A stretch of 64,000 nucleotides of DNA, taken from IMG/VR virus record IMGVR_UViG_3300038620_000134, positions 17,725 to 81,724 of that record; one strand, written 5' to 3'. The position numbers and the translations under genes were made by a program. Below the pieces are notes generated by a model. It was not told the origin of the DNA. It was given only the letters and a program-made list of their open reading frames with translations, and searched no databases. The first letter of the stretch is position 1. Every line of letters starts with the position of its first letter. The DNA is from a virus. Below, in pieces: positions 4,993 to 18,797 of this stretch.

Positions 4993-5901
4993 ATGAAATC
5001 ACCTAATAACAGAACTTTAACACTATCAGAAAAAGAAAAAGAGTGTTATTCAAGTAAATTGATTTCTTTGAATAGCTCTAAGATTAATCCTCCATATGTA
5101 AATGTTACAATTAATGGTAATTATGAAAAAGGTGTTAGTTTAATACAGCCCAATTCAATTAATCTTTTAGTTGCTGATCCACCTTACAACTTACCTAAAA
5201 AATACAATTCAAACACTTTTTCAACTTTAAGTTGGAAAGAATATGAAAACTTTACTCAAGATTGGATTGAAAAAGTGTTTCCTTTATTAACTTCAGATGC
5301 CAGTATTTATGTTTGTTGTGATTGGAAAAGTTCTTCAACTATTGAAAAAGTGCTTAATAAATATTTTTATTTACAGAATAGAATAACTTGGCAGCGAGAA
5401 AAAGGAAGGGGTTCTAAATCTAATTGGAAGAACTGTTTAGAAGATATTTGGTTTGCAACAGTATCTAACAATAGTTATTATTTTGATGTAGACGCGGTTA
5501 AAGTGAAAAGACGTGTTAAAGCTCCTTACAAAGAAAACGGTAAACCCAAAGATTGGCAGGAAGAAAGCAATGGAAACTTTCGGCTAACACATCCTTCTAA
5601 CTTTTGGAATGATATTACTATTCCCTTTTGGTCAATGCCTGAAAATACGGAACATCCCACCCAAAAACCAGAAAAACTAATTGCTAAACTTATATTGGCG
5701 AGTTCCAAAGTTGATGATATTGTTTTAGATCCTTTTTTAGGAAGTGGTACTACTTCGGTTGTTGCAAAGAAACTTAAAAGAAATTATATTGGCATTGAAC
5801 TGGATAGTAAATATGCTTGTATCGCTGAAAAACGATTGGAACTAGCTGAAAAAGATTCAACAATACAAGGATATGAAGACGGTGTGTTTTGGAAATATTA
5901 A
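4993..5901 (+). CDS. Orphan beta-class N6A/N4C DNA methyltransferase
   Basis: DPPY motif precedes HPTQKPEKL and DPFLGSGTT (motif I); no restriction gene adjacent. Confidence 0.93.
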   Translation: MKSPNNRTLTLSEKEKECYSSKLISLNSSKINPPYVNVTINGNYEKGVSLIQPNSINLLVADPPYNLPKKYNSNTFSTLSWKEYENFTQDWIEKVFPLLTSDASIYVCCDWKSSSTIEKVLNKYFYLQNRITWQREKGRGSKSNWKNCLEDIWFATVSNNSYYFDVDAVKVKRRVKAPYKENGKPKDWQEESNGNFRLTHPSNFWNDITIPFWSMPENTEHPTQKPEKLIAKLILASSKVDDIVLDPFLGSGTTSVVAKKLKRNYIGIELDSKYACIAEKRLELAEKDSTIQGYEDGVFWKY

Positions 5902-6113
5902 CTAAAATCAAGTTTTACATGAATTTAATAAACAAATTAAAAGCATTTTTTAACGGTAAAAAAACTGAAAAATCAGTTAAATTAAAATCAGCAGCTTTAT
6001 TTGACCATCTAGGTGTTAAACAACTAAATAAACCCGCTGTGCTTTCTGAAATATTTAATGAAAAGCCTATTGGGCATGAAAAATCTAATAATAGTTTACC
6101 AATAGGTTTTTAA
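5889..6113 (+). CDS. Hypothetical protein
   Basis: Short ORF; real start possibly at the internal MNLINK. Confidence 0.5.
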   Translation: MEILTKIKFYMNLINKLKAFFNGKKTEKSVKLKSAALFDHLGVKQLNKPAVLSEIFNEKPIGHEKSNNSLPIGF

Positions 6114-6156
6114 AACATAATAAGTAATGAATCTTCATGTATTAGATGCTTATTGC

Positions 6157-6244
6157 AGGGGGATGGCAGAGCGGTCGATTGCACCGGTCTTGAAAACCGG
6201 CAGCCAGCTACGCTGGTTCGGGGGTTCGAATCCCTCTCCCCCTG
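6157..6244 (+). tRNA. tRNA-Ser(UGA)
   Basis: Acceptor AGGGGGA/TCCCCCT, anticodon arm CCGGT-CT-TGA-AA-ACCGG, long variable arm, GGTTCGAATC; CCA not encoded. Confidence 0.95.
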
Positions 6245-6277
6245 CTTATGGTTTTTAACTAAAAATTAAAGTTTTGC

Positions 6278-6306
6278 TTGACACCTTCAAAAAGATTTAC
6301 TAGCTT
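6278..6306 (+). promoter_or_regulatory. Early promoter TTGACA-N17-TAGCTT
   Basis: Exact 17-nt spacing; same pattern at 10739, 19722, 21279, 21708, 22230 (+) and 31637, 40496 (-). Confidence 0.7.
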
Positions 6307-6342
6307 TACACCATTCCCGAAATTATTAAACTATTATAAGTT

Positions 6343-6963
6343 ATGACTAACACAACTAAATTTCCAATCGAAGAGCTTTACGCTGAGCCGGAAAAGTTTT
6401 TACTAGCAAGTGAAAATTACGATTTAGGTTACCCTGAGCTTTACTATTTAGCATATGGTAGCCTAATGAAGTGGCATTCTTGTGAGGCTCATTTGGTCTT
6501 GGTGAAGTTAAACTCAAATAAATACGGGCTTGGAGAGTCTGATTTAGAAGAATTTGAGCTTCGCCTTAAAATGGTGGCTAGTCTTTATCAGAACTGGCAA
6601 AATGAGCTGCAAGATTATTGGCAGTTATGTGACGAGTTCGGGGCCAGATATTCTATCACTCTAAGTGATGTTTATAAAAATTCGCTTCCGTTAGATGACG
6701 AAGGCGAACACGAAATTGAAAAAGTTAAAAACTTGAGTATTGAAGCTGCTAAAAGAGCTATTAAAGCAGAAAACTTAGCGGCGGTTAGATGGCTAAACCA
6801 GTTCTGGTTGGAGGCTGATATTTGGAAACAATTGAATTCTAAACCAGATTCTAAAAGAGTTGTACAAGCCCGCTGGTTAAAAGAGCTTTTCGTGTTTGAT
6901 CTTGTTGGAGAAGATAAGTATCCTATGTGGAAAAAACCATTATCGTCTTTTTCTGAACTTTAA
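6343..6963 (+). CDS. Hypothetical early protein
   Basis: 206-aa ORF directly behind an early promoter. Confidence 0.8.
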   Translation: MTNTTKFPIEELYAEPEKFLLASENYDLGYPELYYLAYGSLMKWHSCEAHLVLVKLNSNKYGLGESDLEEFELRLKMVASLYQNWQNELQDYWQLCDEFGARYSITLSDVYKNSLPLDDEGEHEIEKVKNLSIEAAKRAIKAENLAAVRWLNQFWLEADIWKQLNSKPDSKRVVQARWLKELFVFDLVGEDKYPMWKKPLSSFSEL

Positions 6964-7015
6964 TTGTTTTAATTATGCCAGACTTTACCAAAAATACGAA
7001 AAAGAAAATCAAAAA

Positions 7016-7043
7016 CTAAAAAAGAATTATAAAGCTTTTTTAG
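7016..7043. other. Hairpin upstream of tnpB (possible IS605 left-end relic)
   Basis: CTAAAAAAG-N10-CTTTTTTAG inverted repeat; low complexity. Confidence 0.35.
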
Positions 7044-7059
7044 TGATTATTGGCCTATT

Positions 7060-8250
7060 ATGAGTGAGCAAAAGACAATTTATAGAGCCTACAAGTTTCG
7101 ATTAAAGCCTACTAAAGAGCAAGCTGAACTGCTCGACAAGACTTTCGGCTGCGTACGGCTTATTTACAACTATATGCTGGCCCAGCGTAAGGAGCATTAT
7201 GAAAAGACTGGTAAATCTCCGAATGTCTACGAGCAATCACGCCAACTCCCAGAATTAAAACGGACTGAAGAATTTGGCTTTTTGAAGGAAATCGACTCAG
7301 CTGCGTTGGTTAGTGCTGTTTGGGATTTGGACGATGCTTATCAAAGATTTTTCAAAAAACATGGTAAGTATCCTAAGTTTAAGTCTAAGCACAAAAGTAA
7401 AAAAAGTTATAGTTCCTTTTCTAACACGTGCAAAATAAAAGGTGATCGTGTATATGCGCCTAAGTTTAAGAAACAGGGTATAAAAGTCATTGCACACCGT
7501 CTTATTGTGGGCAAGACTAAGACCATGACCTTCAGCAAGACACCTAGCGGGAAGTATTACGTTTCTATCTTTGTAGAAGAGCTATATACGCCCCCCGAAC
7601 CTACGGGTGAAGCTGTTGGTATTGACCTAGGTATAAAAGAGCTTGCTGTTACGTCGGACGGTCAGCGTTACGAGAACGCGAAATATTTGCAGAAATACGA
7701 GAAAAAACTGGCAAAAGCTCAAAAAGATTTAGCCCGTAAAAAGGGAAGTAAGAAATGTGAGGAAAAAAGCAATAGCTATATCCGTCAAAAACAGAAAGTC
7801 GCCAAGCTGCATGAGAAGGTAGCAAATTCGAGAAAAAACTTGCTGCACGAAATATCGCGGGAAGTCGTAGATAACTATGATACGATAGCTTTGGAAGACT
7901 TGAATGTTCAAGGTATGAAGCAAAACCGGAAACTGGCCAAAAATATCAGCGACGTTAGTTGGGGTATGTTCAAAGAAATGCTAAAATACAAGGCAGAACG
8001 AGATAATAAACAGGTTGTGGCGATAAACCGATATTATCCAAGCAGTAAAACCTGCCATATTTGCGGGGATGAGAAGGAAAATCTAAGTCTCTCGGAGCGA
8101 GAGTGGACGTGTTCAAACGGCCACGTCTTAGACCGGGACCTGAATGCAGCAATAAATATATTAAATCAAGGATTACTAAAATTAGAATCGGCAGCAGATG
8201 TCGATAACACGGGTGGAGTCGAAGTAAATCCTGTTTCGACAGGTGTTTGA
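7060..8250 (+). CDS. tnpB: IS200/IS605-family RNA-guided nuclease TnpB, array-associated
   Basis: N-terminal YKFRLKPT..Q...L..TFGC.R.IYN; RuvC-I GIDLG, RuvC-II LEDL, zinc ribbon CHIC...CSNGH, RuvC-III DRDLNAAINI; D-E-D triad intact. Confidence 0.96.
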   Translation: MSEQKTIYRAYKFRLKPTKEQAELLDKTFGCVRLIYNYMLAQRKEHYEKTGKSPNVYEQSRQLPELKRTEEFGFLKEIDSAALVSAVWDLDDAYQRFFKKHGKYPKFKSKHKSKKSYSSFSNTCKIKGDRVYAPKFKKQGIKVIAHRLIVGKTKTMTFSKTPSGKYYVSIFVEELYTPPEPTGEAVGIDLGIKELAVTSDGQRYENAKYLQKYEKKLAKAQKDLARKKGSKKCEEKSNSYIRQKQKVAKLHEKVANSRKNLLHEISREVVDNYDTIALEDLNVQGMKQNRKLAKNISDVSWGMFKEMLKYKAERDNKQVVAINRYYPSSKTCHICGDEKENLSLSEREWTCSNGHVLDRDLNAAINILNQGLLKLESAADVDNTGGVEVNPVSTGV

Positions 8251-8319
8251 CTATGAAACTCGAAGCTCTTTCAAATTTGAAGAGGGAATACCTGACGCAA
8301 GGAAGCGAGGAAAAACGGG
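8187..8319 (+). ncRNA. omegaRNA/reRNA scaffold plus native guide (5' end approximate)
   Basis: Stems ATCGGCA/TGTCGAT, CGGGT..AGTC/GACT..ACTCG, CCTGT-TTCG-ACAGG and terminal hairpin CTCTT..AAGAG ending CTGAC at 8296; overlaps the tnpB 3' end as expected. Confidence 0.8.
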
Positions 8320-8579
8320 GTCGGAGTCCCTCTGCAATTTTGAGAGGGTATCTGACTCATAGATAATTTTTATTTTATTTATTCAGTAAAAAGTCGGAGT
8401 CCCTCTGCAATTTTGAGAGGGTATCTGACTTAATCCGCTTATTTATGTTACGAACTGATCACAAAAAAAGGTGAGAGTCCCTCTAACACTTTGAAAGGGT
8501 ATCTGACAAAGAAGTGCTTGAGGCTTGCGATGCCAGAATTAAGTGAGAGTCCCTCTAACACTTTGAAAGGGTATCTAAT
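8259..8579 (+). CRISPR. CRISPR-like mini-array: degenerate first unit 8259-8296 plus four 37-nt repeats (8320-8356, 8393-8429, 8471-8507, 8543-8579)
   Basis: R1=R2 GTCGGAGTCCCTCTGCAATTTTGAGAGGGTATCTGAC; R3 GTGAGAGTCCCTCTAACACTTTGAAAGGGTATCTGAC; R4 as R3 but ending TCTAAT; unique spacers of 23, 36, 41 and 35 nt. Confidence 0.92.
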
Positions 8580-8670
8580 GTTGACAAGGTAAAATGAAAA
8601 ATTGAACATGAAAGAAGAAGAGCGCTATTAGAAATAATAAGATATATTAAACCACCAAAATAAAAGTACT

Positions 8671-9978
8671 ATGAATATGGAATACCCTGAAATTTATGCG
8701 TTTTCTGGAAAAATAGGTTCTGGAAAAAACTTCATGGCAGAAAAAATATTTCCTGAATATCTTTCTTCTAAGTCCACACTTGTAATGGCATTTGCCGATG
8801 TATTTAAAGTTAGGGCTATCATTGAAGAGGGTTTAGATGAAAAGAAAGTATTTGAAGGGCCGAAAGATGAGGAAACACGTAGAATCCTTCAAATTTATGG
8901 CACTGAAGAAGGACGTGATAAAAAAGGAGAAGATATATGGTGCAGGTATTTGGAACAGTATATTAGATTATATTCTCAAAGAAAATCTATTGAAAGGGTT
9001 ATTATAACAGATTTACGTTTTGAAAATGAAGCAAACTATTTAAGATCACTTGGAGCTTATTTGATTCGTGTAGAAGCACCTAATAGAAACAAAAGTGCAC
9101 TTGAACAAGAAGCGTCCAATAAAGATGGCAACGTTCAATATGATGTTTATAATAAAATTTCGCAACACCCTAGTGAAACAGGTTTAGATAACTGGACAGA
9201 TTGGGATTTAGTAATTCATAATGATTACGAAGATTCTCCTTATATCCACATTCGTGATTGGGTAGTAAATCACCGCGAATCTAAACATTTTTATTCGCAT
9301 GTTGTTTTGATAGATCTTGATGATACGGTTGTTAGTTGTGGTCAAAAATATCATGAAAAAATTGACAAAGCATGTGATCTTATTATCAAGGAAAAATCTA
9401 AAAATTTAACTAAAAAACAAGTAAAAAATACTTTTAAAGAGTTGGATTCTGATCGCCTTAATTCTTTTTATGATCGCTATCGGCTTTCTAAAAAATTAAA
9501 AGAGTTGGGAGTTTACTATAACGTATCAAGTTCTACACTAGAAAAATTATATGAGCTGGGTATTCAAGTTTATAAAGATACGTTTGAATATCTTTCAGGG
9601 TCTTATGAAGCACTAAATTTACTTTGGAAAAATTTGGATAATAATGATAAATTGATTATCTTTACACTTGGAAGACGCGAAGATCAAGTTCGAAAAATAC
9701 ACGAACTTGGGCTTTTTGATATTGAGCATGAAATTGTTGAAACAAGAAAATCTGATGATGTTTACCAACAAGTTAAAAAAGATTATCCAGCTAATAAATA
9801 TACTATGATTGGAGATTCTTTGGAAAATGATGTTTATCCTGCATTATCAGCAGACTTTAACAATATTTATTGGGTAAATAGTTATTCTAATCAAAGCTCT
9901 TTGTATGATTATTTTGTTGTGAAAGACTTACAAGAGGCTGTTTATCATTTTTTAAACCTAAAAGATAAAGTAACATGA
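8671..9978 (+). CDS. dNMP-kinase-like P-loop domain fused to HAD phosphatase
   Basis: GKIGSGK, R.ILQ.YGTE, ITDLRFENE, HPSE; then DLDDT and MIGDSLENDV HAD motifs. Confidence 0.88.
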   Translation: MNMEYPEIYAFSGKIGSGKNFMAEKIFPEYLSSKSTLVMAFADVFKVRAIIEEGLDEKKVFEGPKDEETRRILQIYGTEEGRDKKGEDIWCRYLEQYIRLYSQRKSIERVIITDLRFENEANYLRSLGAYLIRVEAPNRNKSALEQEASNKDGNVQYDVYNKISQHPSETGLDNWTDWDLVIHNDYEDSPYIHIRDWVVNHRESKHFYSHVVLIDLDDTVVSCGQKYHEKIDKACDLIIKEKSKNLTKKQVKNTFKELDSDRLNSFYDRYRLSKKLKELGVYYNVSSSTLEKLYELGIQVYKDTFEYLSGSYEALNLLWKNLDNNDKLIIFTLGRREDQVRKIHELGLFDIEHEIVETRKSDDVYQQVKKDYPANKYTMIGDSLENDVYPALSADFNNIYWVNSYSNQSSLYDYFVVKDLQEAVYHFLNLKDKVT

Positions 9979-10160
9979 GCAGAATAGAAAGCATACTTAT
10001 TATATTAATTGCAGGAGCTGTTTTAATTATTTCTTTAATTAAAACATCAGAACAATGTAATACAGAAAAAACTTATGTTTTAAATTGTGATACTACTAAA
10101 GTGTCTAACAATAAAACAGTAGTTAGTTGTGATACAATCACTGTAAACAACATACAATAA
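9975..10160 (+). CDS. Small membrane-anchored protein
   Basis: N-terminal hydrophobic helix and two CDT motifs. Confidence 0.65.
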   Translation: MSRIESILIILIAGAVLIISLIKTSEQCNTEKTYVLNCDTTKVSNNKTVVSCDTITVNNIQ

Positions 10161-16715: not shown

Positions 16716-18797
16716 ATGACTTCATATAATGAAAAAATAGCACAAAAATTAGAAGAATTAGACAACAATTATATTAAAAGTGGTGCTATATATGATAACC
16801 AGGTTGACGCAGCCAAAGAAATAATAAAAAGCTTTACTAAAGTTGATTCAGGAAAGAGTGAAAATGATAGCAGAAATAGACATGTTATTTTATTAGCTCA
16901 AATGCAAAGTGGAAAAACCGGTGTGTGTAATGCCGTATGTAATATGCTTGAATATGTAAATCCCGATAATCAAATTAAATTGTCTAGTTATTTTGGTATA
17001 AAGCGTTACTTTTTTATAACTGGAATGAATGATGTTGCTTTAAGAGATCAAACTGCTAATCGCGTCAAAAATGAAATTATTAATTCATATTCAAAAATTG
17101 ACAATAATGAAGATGACCATTTAGGTAAGTATATTGTAACTGGTGATAATATAGCAAAACCAGAAGCAAAATACTTTATTGAAAAAAATAGTGATTTAAA
17201 AAAGGAAATAAATGCAAACATAGAAGACTGTATAGTATTTATTGATGAATCCCACTATGGTTCTAAAGAAGAAAACGTGTTGACTAAATTTTTAAAAAAT
17301 AATGATATTGATTGGAAAAACGATCCACAAAAATTAAAAAATAACAATATTTATATTGTTTCTATTTCAGCAACTCCTTTTACTGAAAGTTATAGTGATA
17401 AGAATGAAAGTAAACCTAAAATATCACTAGAAACAGATAATAATTATTATGGAGTAAAAGAATTTTTAGATTTGGGATTGATTCATCATGCAGATAAAAA
17501 AAGTGATTTTAAAAGTAAGAGTTTTTTTCCCCAACCTAGTAAAAAAAAACGTTTGGAAAACTTTAGAAACTACATTGCACAAAACTTCTTAGGTTCTAAG
17601 GTAACCGTTGAACAAATGGTCAATATCTTTAACTACTACTTTTCCGATATAATGAGAGAAAAACAAGCCAAGAGCAATCAATTCAAACAAAAAATGAAAA
17701 TGCTTTTTGATATTGAAGATAAGAAAAGTGGAAGAACTCGTTACTATAAAATTAATAGTATAAAAAACTTTGATAATTTTGATGACAAATATTTTATTAA
17801 TAAATTTAAACCTGAAATAAAAAGTACTAAACAAGAACCTAACATTGTTGAGTATCTTAAAGATGCACATTCTAGAATGAAGCAAAATTCACAAAGTTTA
17901 ACACCTATAGGTGTATGTATTGTAAGATGTGATGGTAAAAAAATTCAAAAACTAAAAAATAATGACTTTATTAGCAGTTATTTTAGGATAATAGAGTTTA
18001 ATAATGAAAACTACAAAAAATTAAATTTTGGTACTGAATTAAAAGATAAAATTGAACTAATGATAAAATCCGCTTCAGATTCTAATAAACATGCAAATGA
18101 TAATTCAAACAAACCTCTTTTAATATTGATTAAAGGGGCTTTTCGTGCAGGTATAACTATACCTAATTATTATAAAGATTACATATATATGATATATGAT
18201 ATTGCTAATAAACCCCACACTACAGCTCAAGGTTTACTTGGTAGAATGTGTGGTTATAGAAGTAACGATAGTAACATAGAAAATACTGCTTTTTATGTAA
18301 ATAAAGATCATGCAGAAAAATATGCAGATTGGGTAAAGAATAACTTTAAAAGAAAATACATACCAATAAAAAAGAAAAAAAGAAGCAGTGTAAAATGTGC
18401 AACAGAAAATAAATTATCTTTTGGTCTTGACTTGGATTCTGTTAAAAAATTAAAAAAATCAAACGATCTAAAAAAAACATTAAGTGAATTAAATGTTTCT
18501 ATAGACTTTGATTATATAGGAGAGACATACTTAGCAAATAACTATCGAAATTATACAGAATATAGTCAAAGTGTTAAAGACAAATGGTATGATATAATTA
18601 ACAGTAATGAACGTGGTGTACCAAGTTATAGGCATAAGAAAAAACCTTTAACTGAAGATGATATTGGAAAAACATATATACATTTAGCTTTGAATGACAT
18701 TGATAATGAACTTTATATATATAAAGGAAAAATTGTCAAAAGTAATCCACAACACAAAGAATTATATGAAAAGCATAAAGACACTTCTGAATTTTAA
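16716..18797 (+). CDS. SF2 (DExH-like) helicase/ATPase
   Basis: AQMQSGKT, DESH, SATP, QGLLGRMCGY motifs. Confidence 0.85.
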   Translation: MTSYNEKIAQKLEELDNNYIKSGAIYDNQVDAAKEIIKSFTKVDSGKSENDSRNRHVILLAQMQSGKTGVCNAVCNMLEYVNPDNQIKLSSYFGIKRYFFITGMNDVALRDQTANRVKNEIINSYSKIDNNEDDHLGKYIVTGDNIAKPEAKYFIEKNSDLKKEINANIEDCIVFIDESHYGSKEENVLTKFLKNNDIDWKNDPQKLKNNNIYIVSISATPFTESYSDKNESKPKISLETDNNYYGVKEFLDLGLIHHADKKSDFKSKSFFPQPSKKKRLENFRNYIAQNFLGSKVTVEQMVNIFNYYFSDIMREKQAKSNQFKQKMKMLFDIEDKKSGRTRYYKINSIKNFDNFDDKYFINKFKPEIKSTKQEPNIVEYLKDAHSRMKQNSQSLTPIGVCIVRCDGKKIQKLKNNDFISSYFRIIEFNNENYKKLNFGTELKDKIELMIKSASDSNKHANDNSNKPLLILIKGAFRAGITIPNYYKDYIYMIYDIANKPHTTAQGLLGRMCGYRSNDSNIENTAFYVNKDHAEKYADWVKNNFKRKYIPIKKKKRSSVKCATENKLSFGLDLDSVKKLKKSNDLKKTLSELNVSIDFDYIGETYLANNYRNYTEYSQSVKDKWYDIINSNERGVPSYRHKKKPLTEDDIGKTYIHLALNDIDNELYIYKGKIVKSNPQHKELYEKHKDTSEF

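Follow-up and report, generated by a model that had tools for sequence, protein, structure and literature searches.

TranC systems are said to use both CRISPR RNAs (crRNAs) and reRNAs, the right-end or omegaRNAs. They have been published as intermediates between transposons and CRISPR (Jin et al., Cell 2025;188:6283, as conveyed by texts that cite it), and structures of LaTranC are available as PDB entries 9jfo and 9jfq. For the ISDra2 TnpB, the structural study (PMC10097598) describes, by cryo-electron microscopy, pairing of omegaRNA positions -5 to -3 with -103 to -105, and a second long-range helix immediately 5′ of the final hairpin. In the present study, we analysed a stretch of 64,000 nucleotides (nt), hereafter the window, from the IMG/VR virus record IMGVR_UViG_3300038620_000134 (positions 17,725 to 81,724). 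The whole record measures 81.7 kb and was estimated by CheckV to be ~31% complete. In this window, a tnpB-like gene is followed by an omegaRNA and by a short repeat array. Our preferred explanation, to which we give a probability of roughly 60%, is that a phage-borne TnpB of the ISDra2 type has been domesticated and turned into a TranC-type transposon-CRISPR intermediate.

The first part of the evidence is the omegaRNA, whose features, together with those of the gene, are the following.

7060-8250, plus strand: tnpB-like gene for an ISDra2-type RNA-guided nuclease of 396 amino acids (aa), assigned by Pfam, NCBIfam and alignment with 8h1j
8176-8258, plus strand: predicted omegaRNA scaffold, overlapping the 3′ end of tnpB (covariance model R2, fold and alignment)
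8187-8193 with 8199-8205, plus strand: predicted stem 1, with the loop GCAGA at 8194-8198
8195-8199, plus strand: putative pseudoknot strand CAGAT, in the stem-1 loop of the scaffold
8211-8214, plus strand: putative helix-2 strand GGGT, pairing with ACTC at 8258-8261
8217-8223 with 8246-8252, plus strand: predicted stem 2
8230-8234 with 8239-8243, plus strand: predicted stem 3
8259-8296, plus strand: R0, the predicted terminal module of the omegaRNA (hairpin and tail ...ACCTGAC) and former transposon right end, assigned by the end of the model R2 match and by the relatives' ...GAAGCCC-hairpin-GGGTAGTTCAC
8297-8319, plus strand: sp0, 23 nt directly after the right-end boundary, in the position of the native omegaRNA guide

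The first-pass annotation, made from the letters of the window, had stated that an omegaRNA scaffold is still present and ends at 8296. This was independently confirmed with a model in which only relatives were used. Eighty related viral loci were found with an alignment query (a single-protein query for related loci found no viral relative), and a right end could be assigned in 70 of them. Their 3′ ends mostly read ...GTGAAACCCGAAGCCC-hairpin-GGGTAGTTCAC and then pass into unrelated flank. The covariance model of the full omegaRNA (model R2), built from 42 viral relatives with the window excluded, gave one strong match in the 64 kb, at 8176-8296, which spans the full model length (63.7 bits, E 2.1e-15). 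Applied to 80 loci of bacterial relatives, the same model detected an omegaRNA behind tnpB in 65, so it generalises. An Rfam scan matched a tRNA only and no omegaRNA-like family. As in an OMEGA element, the RNA lies at the 3′ end of tnpB, stops at the right end and has its guide immediately downstream. The 38-nt R0 reads CTCGAAG...CCTGAC, and no counterpart of sp0 was found in the rest of the 81.7-kb record. Scaffold and R0 are, by prediction, a complete one-piece omegaRNA.

The second part of the evidence is the array that follows sp0, which consists of these elements.

8320-8356, plus strand: repeat R1, 37 nt, identical to R2
8357-8392, plus strand: spacer 1, 36 nt, AT-rich
8393-8429, plus strand: repeat R2, 37 nt
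8430-8470, plus strand: spacer 2, 41 nt
8471-8507, plus strand: repeat R3, 37 nt, a variant form with 7 differences from R1
8508-8542, plus strand: spacer 3, 35 nt, identical over its first 25 nt to part of a GDSL-like hydrolase gene on contig L082
8543-8579, plus strand: repeat R4, 37 nt, R3-like, with the degenerate ending CTAAT

The four repeats start 70 nt past the tnpB stop codon and follow one another with periods of 73, 78 and 72 nt. A nuclease of the TnpB lineage here directly adjoins a CRISPR array with unique spacers of 35-41 nt, as in TranC. An array behind tnpB was found in none of the 80 viral relatives and, with an array detector for which the window served as positive control, in one of the 80 bacterial relatives. 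Three viral relatives flagged as array-bearing proved to carry coding or low-complexity tandem repeats and were rejected. Tandem Repeats Finder did not list the array, all of its 25 rows being short-period repeats elsewhere. A promoter and terminator scan was unhelpful: shuffled sequences gave more promoter-like sites than the single one located within R1/spacer 1, and the plus strand had no terminator.

The array repeats had been said to look like copies of the right-end hairpin of the omegaRNA, and the comparison with R0 bears this out. Global alignment of R0 with R1 scores 14, against a maximum of 7 (mean -9.1, standard deviation 3.4) for the 127,086 other 38-mers on both strands of the window with the array masked, and at most 10 in the remaining 17.8 kb of the virus record; R0 is by far the best match of the repeat outside the array. 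The strings reported as common to R0 and the repeat (TCG.AG, CAA.TTTG, AGAGGG and TA.CTGAC) are all present. When cut at the same alignment column, the terminal module measures 38 nt in 27 of 48 unique relatives, next to 37 nt for the repeat and 38 nt for R0. Furthermore, the relatives' modules and the repeats follow a common plan, in which a 7-nt flank ending in GAAG is followed by a hairpin and an 8-nt tail. R0 and R1-R3 all end in CTGAC; none of the 70 right ends assigned in relatives does so. In addition, a variant in the sequencing run X1 (8291 C>T) gives R0 the exact repeat ending ATCTGAC. By its similarity to R0, its ending, its length and its layout, the repeat is equivalent to the end of the omegaRNA that adjoins the guide, as in TranC. 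A common origin of R0 and the repeats is well supported at this level, and the repeats would be copies of the hairpin with its pseudoknot strand. The proposal that the array arose by duplication of the right-end hairpin is in keeping with the length, the layout, the shared CTGAC and the X1 variant.

The third part of the evidence is the pseudoknot. CAGAT (8195-8199) and the ATCTG of the repeat tail are reverse complements, and this complementarity had first been offered as short and weak evidence. It can now be upgraded. Across the relatives, the first-hairpin loop (…CAG-GAAC-TG…) can pair with tail positions -6 to -3 (TA-GTTC-AC), and the two sides covary. The viral relatives fall into eight tail classes, each of which fits its own loop best or equal best in a class-by-class matrix. 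Among the loop:tail pairs are GAAC:GTTC, CAAC:GTTG (loci L059 and L063), GAGC:GCTC (L071), GAAT:ATTC (L055 and L078), GACAC:GTGTC (the L066 group), GGCTT:AAGTC (L027, with one G-U pair) and GATG:CATC (L067). In the window, the loop CAGA(T) and the repeat tail (A)TCTG at -7 to -3 can form five Watson-Crick pairs, compared with three for the same loop and the reference R0 tail ACCTG. The predicted duplex energies are -5.6 kcal/mol for the repeat, -2.9 kcal/mol for R0 and -5.6 kcal/mol for a canonical relative. In the ISDra2 structure, the pseudoknot occupies the corresponding positions. These data support the view that CAGAT/ATCTG lies at the conserved pseudoknot of the family and is no chance 5-mer.

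The one array-bearing bacterial relative (L128; Segatella copri iAP1412, NZ_VZBE01000030.1, 2600-3000) carries a TnpB-like gene with 40% identity to that of the window. About 165 nt after this gene lies an array of four repeats of 36-38 nt, spaced 64-66 nt. As read from the sequence, the loop TGTAC of the first scaffold hairpin can pair with GTACA, which occupies positions -7 to -3 of the repeat tail, and the repeats do not self-close. This locus appears to follow the same pseudoknot logic as the window.

The protein was then placed among its homologues. It has the HTH/WED N-terminus, the RuvC D-E-D triad and the zinc-finger TNB domain of an OMEGA nuclease, with the Pfam domains HTH_OrfB_IS605, OrfB_IS605 and Cas12f1-like_TNB. 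The NCBIfam model guided_TnpB scores 355 bits against a cut-off of 100, and IS200_TnpB scores 405 bits, slightly below its cut-off of 425. Residues D189, E279 and D360 occupy invariant columns in an alignment of 31 sequences and align with the RuvC motifs GVDVG, TEHL and DRDENAA of 8h1j; as judged from this alignment, the catalytic D/E/D residues are intact. The nearest natural solved homologue is the ISDra2 TnpB (8h1j; 224 bits, collinear over residues 9-395), which is outscored by the AI-designed nuclease 9yyg (250 bits). LaTranC reaches 117 bits over the C-terminal part only, and the window protein, being far closer to ISDra2, therefore represents a separate lineage. A search of 5.8 billion clustered proteins gave closest homologues of ordinary TnpB length at 55-56% identity. 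The named Cas12 subtype models of NCBIfam stay below their cut-offs (Cas12f2, 77.5 bits against 450; C2c8, 119 bits against 350). The locus is not a type V CRISPR-Cas system in the sense of a named Cas12 subtype with cas1/cas2.

Neither Y1_Tnp (TnpA) nor Cas1 or Cas2 was found in the 81.7-kb record, which also holds no second tnpB. No hairpin of the left-end (LE) type lies in the 170 nt upstream of tnpB, where many relatives have GTAAAACCC...GGGATGTAAG. The locus does not have the left-end hairpin and TnpA of a mobile unit. Since the record represents ~31% of a genome, these absences are not final and a TnpA acting in trans is possible; as they stand, the absences of LE, TnpA, Cas1 and Cas2 fit domestication.

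Under the reading as a domesticated, TranC-type intermediate, the gene would still yield a one-piece omegaRNA made of the scaffold (8176-8258), R0 (8259-8296) and the 23-nt guide. The four downstream units would each consist of hairpin, pseudoknot strand and guide, that is, the crRNA-like part of the omegaRNA, and the array would be transcribed together with tnpB. The TnpB could then load the omegaRNA in cis or, alternatively, an RNA made of repeat and spacer. With such an RNA, the hairpin next to the guide and the tail UCUG would come from the repeat, and the other strand of the pseudoknot from the loop CAGA[U] of scaffold stem 1. The ~20-25 nt adjoining the repeat would direct RuvC cleavage of matching DNA, and the role of such a system would most likely lie in conflicts with other phages or mobile DNA. 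We infer this course, from transcription and processing to assembly in trans, targets and activity, from the arrangement of the locus.

Several results weigh against this reading. An exact pattern search of IMG/VR and of 241 million metagenome records found no other copy of the repeat, and no full-length protospacer was found for any spacer among GenBank phages, the own record, IMG/VR and genome contigs. A covariance model of the terminal module (model R1; 38 positions, built from the relatives' modules alone) gave 26 matches in the whole window at E up to 10, with R0 and repeats R1-R4 absent among them, and in 8150-8650 its best was a partial match of 4.8 bits. The full omegaRNA model aligned repeat R2 in the right register with only 1.5 bits (E 0.79). 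In plain alignment with the relatives' loci, R1 was the top hit in 3 of 66 and within the top 20 in 19 of 66, and R3 in 0 and 4 of 66, respectively; R0, which is homologous by position, was the top hit in 0 and within the top 20 in 7. Among bacterial relatives, 10 of 37 unique loop/tail pairs reach at least 4 Watson-Crick pairs, compared with 10% of 1,100 mismatched pairings, in a crude count that admits Watson-Crick pairs only and depends on imperfect hairpin detection. The covariance-model check that had been suggested for the repeats did not bear out the resemblance, the relatives' 3′ modules scoring neither R0 nor the repeats. Because this test also misses R0, its positive control, it is insensitive. 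The comparison at family level does not recognise even the genuine right end, so the argument has to be made from the evidence within the locus presented above.

The remaining points on this side concern the use of the scaffold in trans. The fit of loop and tail is no evidence of trans action, because selection on the omegaRNA in cis explains the complementarity; scaffold and R0 are one RNA, from which the repeats simply inherited the tail. Helix 2 covaries strongly in the relatives, as read from the alignment (GGGT:ACCC, TGAT:GTCA, CGAT:GTCG, TCGG:CCGA and GGCT:AGCC), and of its four pairs two are kept in R1/R2 and none in R3/R4. The closed hairpin of R1/R2 is predicted at -19.4 kcal/mol (z -5.5; none of 200 shuffles was as stable), and the 5′ flank GUCGGA of these repeats pairs with the tail UCUGAC in an outer helix of 6 bp. 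The cost of freeing the tail was calculated as 9.9 kcal/mol for R1 and 6.2 kcal/mol for R3, compared with 2.4 kcal/mol for the canonical module and 0 for R0. The flank and tail make 6 of 6 pairs in R1, 5 of 6 in R3/R4, 3 of 6 in R0 and at most 4 of 6 in the modules of 48 relatives. In comparison with R0, two substitutions present in all repeats (C1>G and A5>G) create tail pairs. The folding of R1/R2 onto their own tail argues against simple pairing in trans. The pairing of tail and loop thus appears real as a feature of the family, and its use in trans is unproven, being challenged by the closing helix of the repeats. The first-pass annotation had seen in the scaffold a tracr-like (trans-activating crRNA-like) partner for the repeat-spacer RNAs and in the locus a snapshot of omegaRNA splitting. 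The snapshot is a fair description of the locus, and the phenomenon has been published as TranC; the trans role is the part that is in doubt, through the explanation in cis, the lost helix 2 and the sequestered tail.

These same data lead to the rival that survives best, which we regard as unlikely but not negligible. In that rival, each repeat gives a self-contained crRNA, a condensed omegaRNA in which the flank GUCGGA replaces the pseudoknot strand of the scaffold. The nuclease would work free of a tracr RNA, like Cas12a and Cas12r, and the scaffold upstream would be needed for the original R0 guide only. The stability of the closed R1/R2 hairpin, the higher flank:tail pairing of R1 and R3/R4 than of R0 and the two substitutions speak for it, as does the fact that opening the tail (9.9 kcal/mol) costs more than the pseudoknot in trans returns (-5.6). 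There is also precedent, in that a "condensed and duplicated" omegaRNA was proposed as the origin of palindromic, tracr-free repeats (Nakagawa et al., PMC10097598) and that the phage-encoded Cas12r works with crRNA only (bioRxiv 10.64898/2026.04.20.719267). The protein, however, is an unexpanded, ISDra2-like TnpB, and the ISDra2 protein is described as binding its scaffold extensively (PMC10097598). The same study records that for ISDra2 a flank:tail pairing had been predicted from sequence and that the structure showed the loop:tail pseudoknot instead. Moreover, the outer helix of R3/R4 contains a mismatch and their inner stem is weak, and the scaffold loop is still perfectly complementary to the repeat tail. 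The further proposal that both published routes from omegaRNA to crRNA coexist in this locus, namely an intact omegaRNA beside self-closing repeats, with an unexpanded 396-aa TnpB using tracr-free, Cas12a-style crRNAs and guides of ~25 nt, we consider rather unlikely.

The spacers bear on a second rival. Against GenBank phages, all spacer hits had E of at least 1 (24 records), and against the own 81.7-kb record nothing exceeded the shuffled controls. Exact 24-mers of spacers 2 and 3 had no match in IMG/VR, and the 24-mer of spacer 3 had none in genome contigs. The spacer 3 24-mer gave one match among metagenome contigs, on L082 (JAEIGA010963303.1; 1,348 nt, bacterial-looking). The first 25 of its 35 nt, at the repeat-adjacent end (8508-8532), are identical to L082:178-202 on the minus strand, and the last 10 nt are unrelated. 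The match lies in a GDSL/SGNH-like hydrolase gene, and the contig also carries an alpha/beta-hydrolase-like gene. By a rough, uncomputed estimate, about 0.004 to 0.01 chance 24-mer hits would be expected. This match could be chance, captured flank or a guide used only in its repeat-proximal part, as in Cas12r (18 nt) and TnpB.

The locus is present in contigs of four tidal-flat metagenome DNA runs, which contain 96%, 73%, 50% and 9% of the sampled words of the stretch; no RNA sequencing run containing it was listed. In run X1, a variant contig (8261-8349) carries 8291 C>T, 8307 G>T and 8315 A>C, the last two within sp0. One further contig of this run has ~52 different letters ahead of the repeat starting at 8393, and the depth is raised over 8291-8432. 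These single contigs give a hint that the content of the array varies in the population.

The second rival holds that the array is a relic without guide function, in which junctions of right end and flank were gathered by recombination or slippage and are neither processed nor used. The adaptation genes not found in the record would agree with this, as would the small number of units (only four), the degenerate tail of R4, the weak hairpins of R3/R4 and the irregular first "spacer" of 23 nt. The way in which spacer 3 follows a bacterial gene over 25 nt and then diverges also resembles captured flank or a recombination joint. Yet R1 and R2 are identical, the whole 8-nt tail is kept in R1-R3, the period is regular (72-78 nt), and relative to R0 the repeats gained structure and lost none. 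The virus record contains no second tnpB, further repeat copy or TnpA to drive such events, and comparable phage loci are active at the bench according to two preprints (bioRxiv 10.64898/2026.03.27.714800; 10.64898/2026.04.20.719267). We therefore hold a mere relic to be quite unlikely. A third rival, in which a host CRISPR-Cas system was the source of the repeats, with later adaptation of R0 and the scaffold loop to them and thus a reversed descent, would explain through the host adaptation module how spacers were gained without cas1/cas2, but it is very improbable, given that the exact repeat is absent from IMG/VR and the 241 million metagenome records, that its length, layout and tail spacing are those of the TnpB family's own terminal module and that R0 sits in the canonical position of a full-length omegaRNA match.

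Some observations on the array and its surroundings should be recorded. The 10-14 nt ahead of each repeat (8306-8319, 8379-8392, 8457-8470 and 8529-8542) are A-rich and loosely similar, and they resemble the ATGAAA linker ahead of R0. The copied unit may be longer than 37 nt, which would leave ~25 nt truly variable. The stricter idea that these A-rich spacer 3′ ends derive, as decayed copies, from the linker ATGAAA of the omegaRNA was rejected, since 8 of 14 identities between the stretches before R3 and R4 are too weak at 30% G+C. ATAAATAA, a motif resembling late promoters, is present on the minus strand of both spacer 1 and spacer 2 (8357-8470); its frequency in this genome is 0.55 per kb, so that ~0.06 would be expected in the 112 nt of spacers. 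The window has 30% G+C and contains a tRNA and phage-type genes. The neighbours of the tnpB locus are as follows.

4993-5901: N6/N4 DNA methyltransferase of 302 aa (Pfam N6_N4_Mtase, E 3e-43), ~1.2 kb upstream of tnpB
6157-6244: tRNA whose variable arm is long (55.7 bits in Rfam), 78-83% identical to sequences of T4-like coliphages, tRNA-Ser in most of the listed records; it is the sole part of 6000-10000 that matches GenBank phages
8671-9978: protein of 435 aa right after the array, with a weak N-terminus like dNMP kinase or phosphomevalonate kinase and a C-terminus like HAD hydrolase (Pfam, E 2e-8 and 7e-5)

With respect to the known systems, the locus resembles ISDra2 (PDB 8h1j, 8exa; PMC10097598) in stem 1, in the loop-tail pseudoknot, in the long-range helix 5′ of the last hairpin and in the guide. 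It differs in that ISDra2 is a mobile insertion sequence with TnpA, LE and a single guide, whereas the window has four extra units of module plus guide. With TranC, as it has been described, it shares a TnpB-derived nuclease beside an array, crRNAs equivalent to the 3′ portion of the right-end (omega) RNA, a retained reRNA/omegaRNA architecture and the absence of associated adaptation genes. In contrast to those descriptions, the repeat in the window equals the whole terminal hairpin with its tail and not one strand of a repeat:anti-repeat duplex, and an unsplit omegaRNA with its own guide is kept in cis. The Cas12r-CRISPR system of the Thermus Lalka phages (bioRxiv 10.64898/2026.04.20.719267) is likewise a phage-encoded, TnpB-derived nuclease with a short array and no adaptation genes, in which only the repeat-proximal 18 nt of the spacers are used. 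However, Cas12r has 564 aa, type I-E-like repeats of 29 bp and a place in another TnpB branch, and its tracr-free activity has been demonstrated.

The origin of type V systems by splitting or condensing of the omegaRNA is already published, as a hypothesis by Nakagawa et al in 2023 (PMC10097598) and with TranC by Jin et al in 2025. The locus contributes a clear example in which the unsplit omegaRNA persists, and a testable guide-RNA architecture for a TnpB-sized phage system. The ancestral omegaRNA, its putative copies and the pseudoknot partner are legible within 400 nt, beside an unexpanded ISDra2-like protein. With it, simple bench experiments could address whether TnpB accepts a guide module supplied in trans and whether repeats that close on themselves make the scaffold dispensable. 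In practical terms, the 396-aa protein is a candidate for a multiplexable nuclease.

A further comparison is with CauTranC9 of TranC clade 9, which, according to bioRxiv 10.64898/2026.03.27.714800, comes from a Caudoviricetes genome. Like the window protein, it is of TnpB size (clade average 414 aa), has no expanded REC/WED and has a predicted fold like that of the ISDra2 TnpB. It is described with an array of five 38-bp repeats, and the window has five units of 37-38 nt when R0 is counted. It differs in that its native array is reported to target phages, and for the spacers of the window no target was found. By description, the match with the window is close, and the window may belong to the clade of CauTranC9 or may even be the same system. 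For clade 9, the preprint describes no consistent tracrRNA structure, and it is suggested that the arrangement described here, an omegaRNA with copied terminal modules, could supply the missing guide-RNA architecture for this phage TranC clade.

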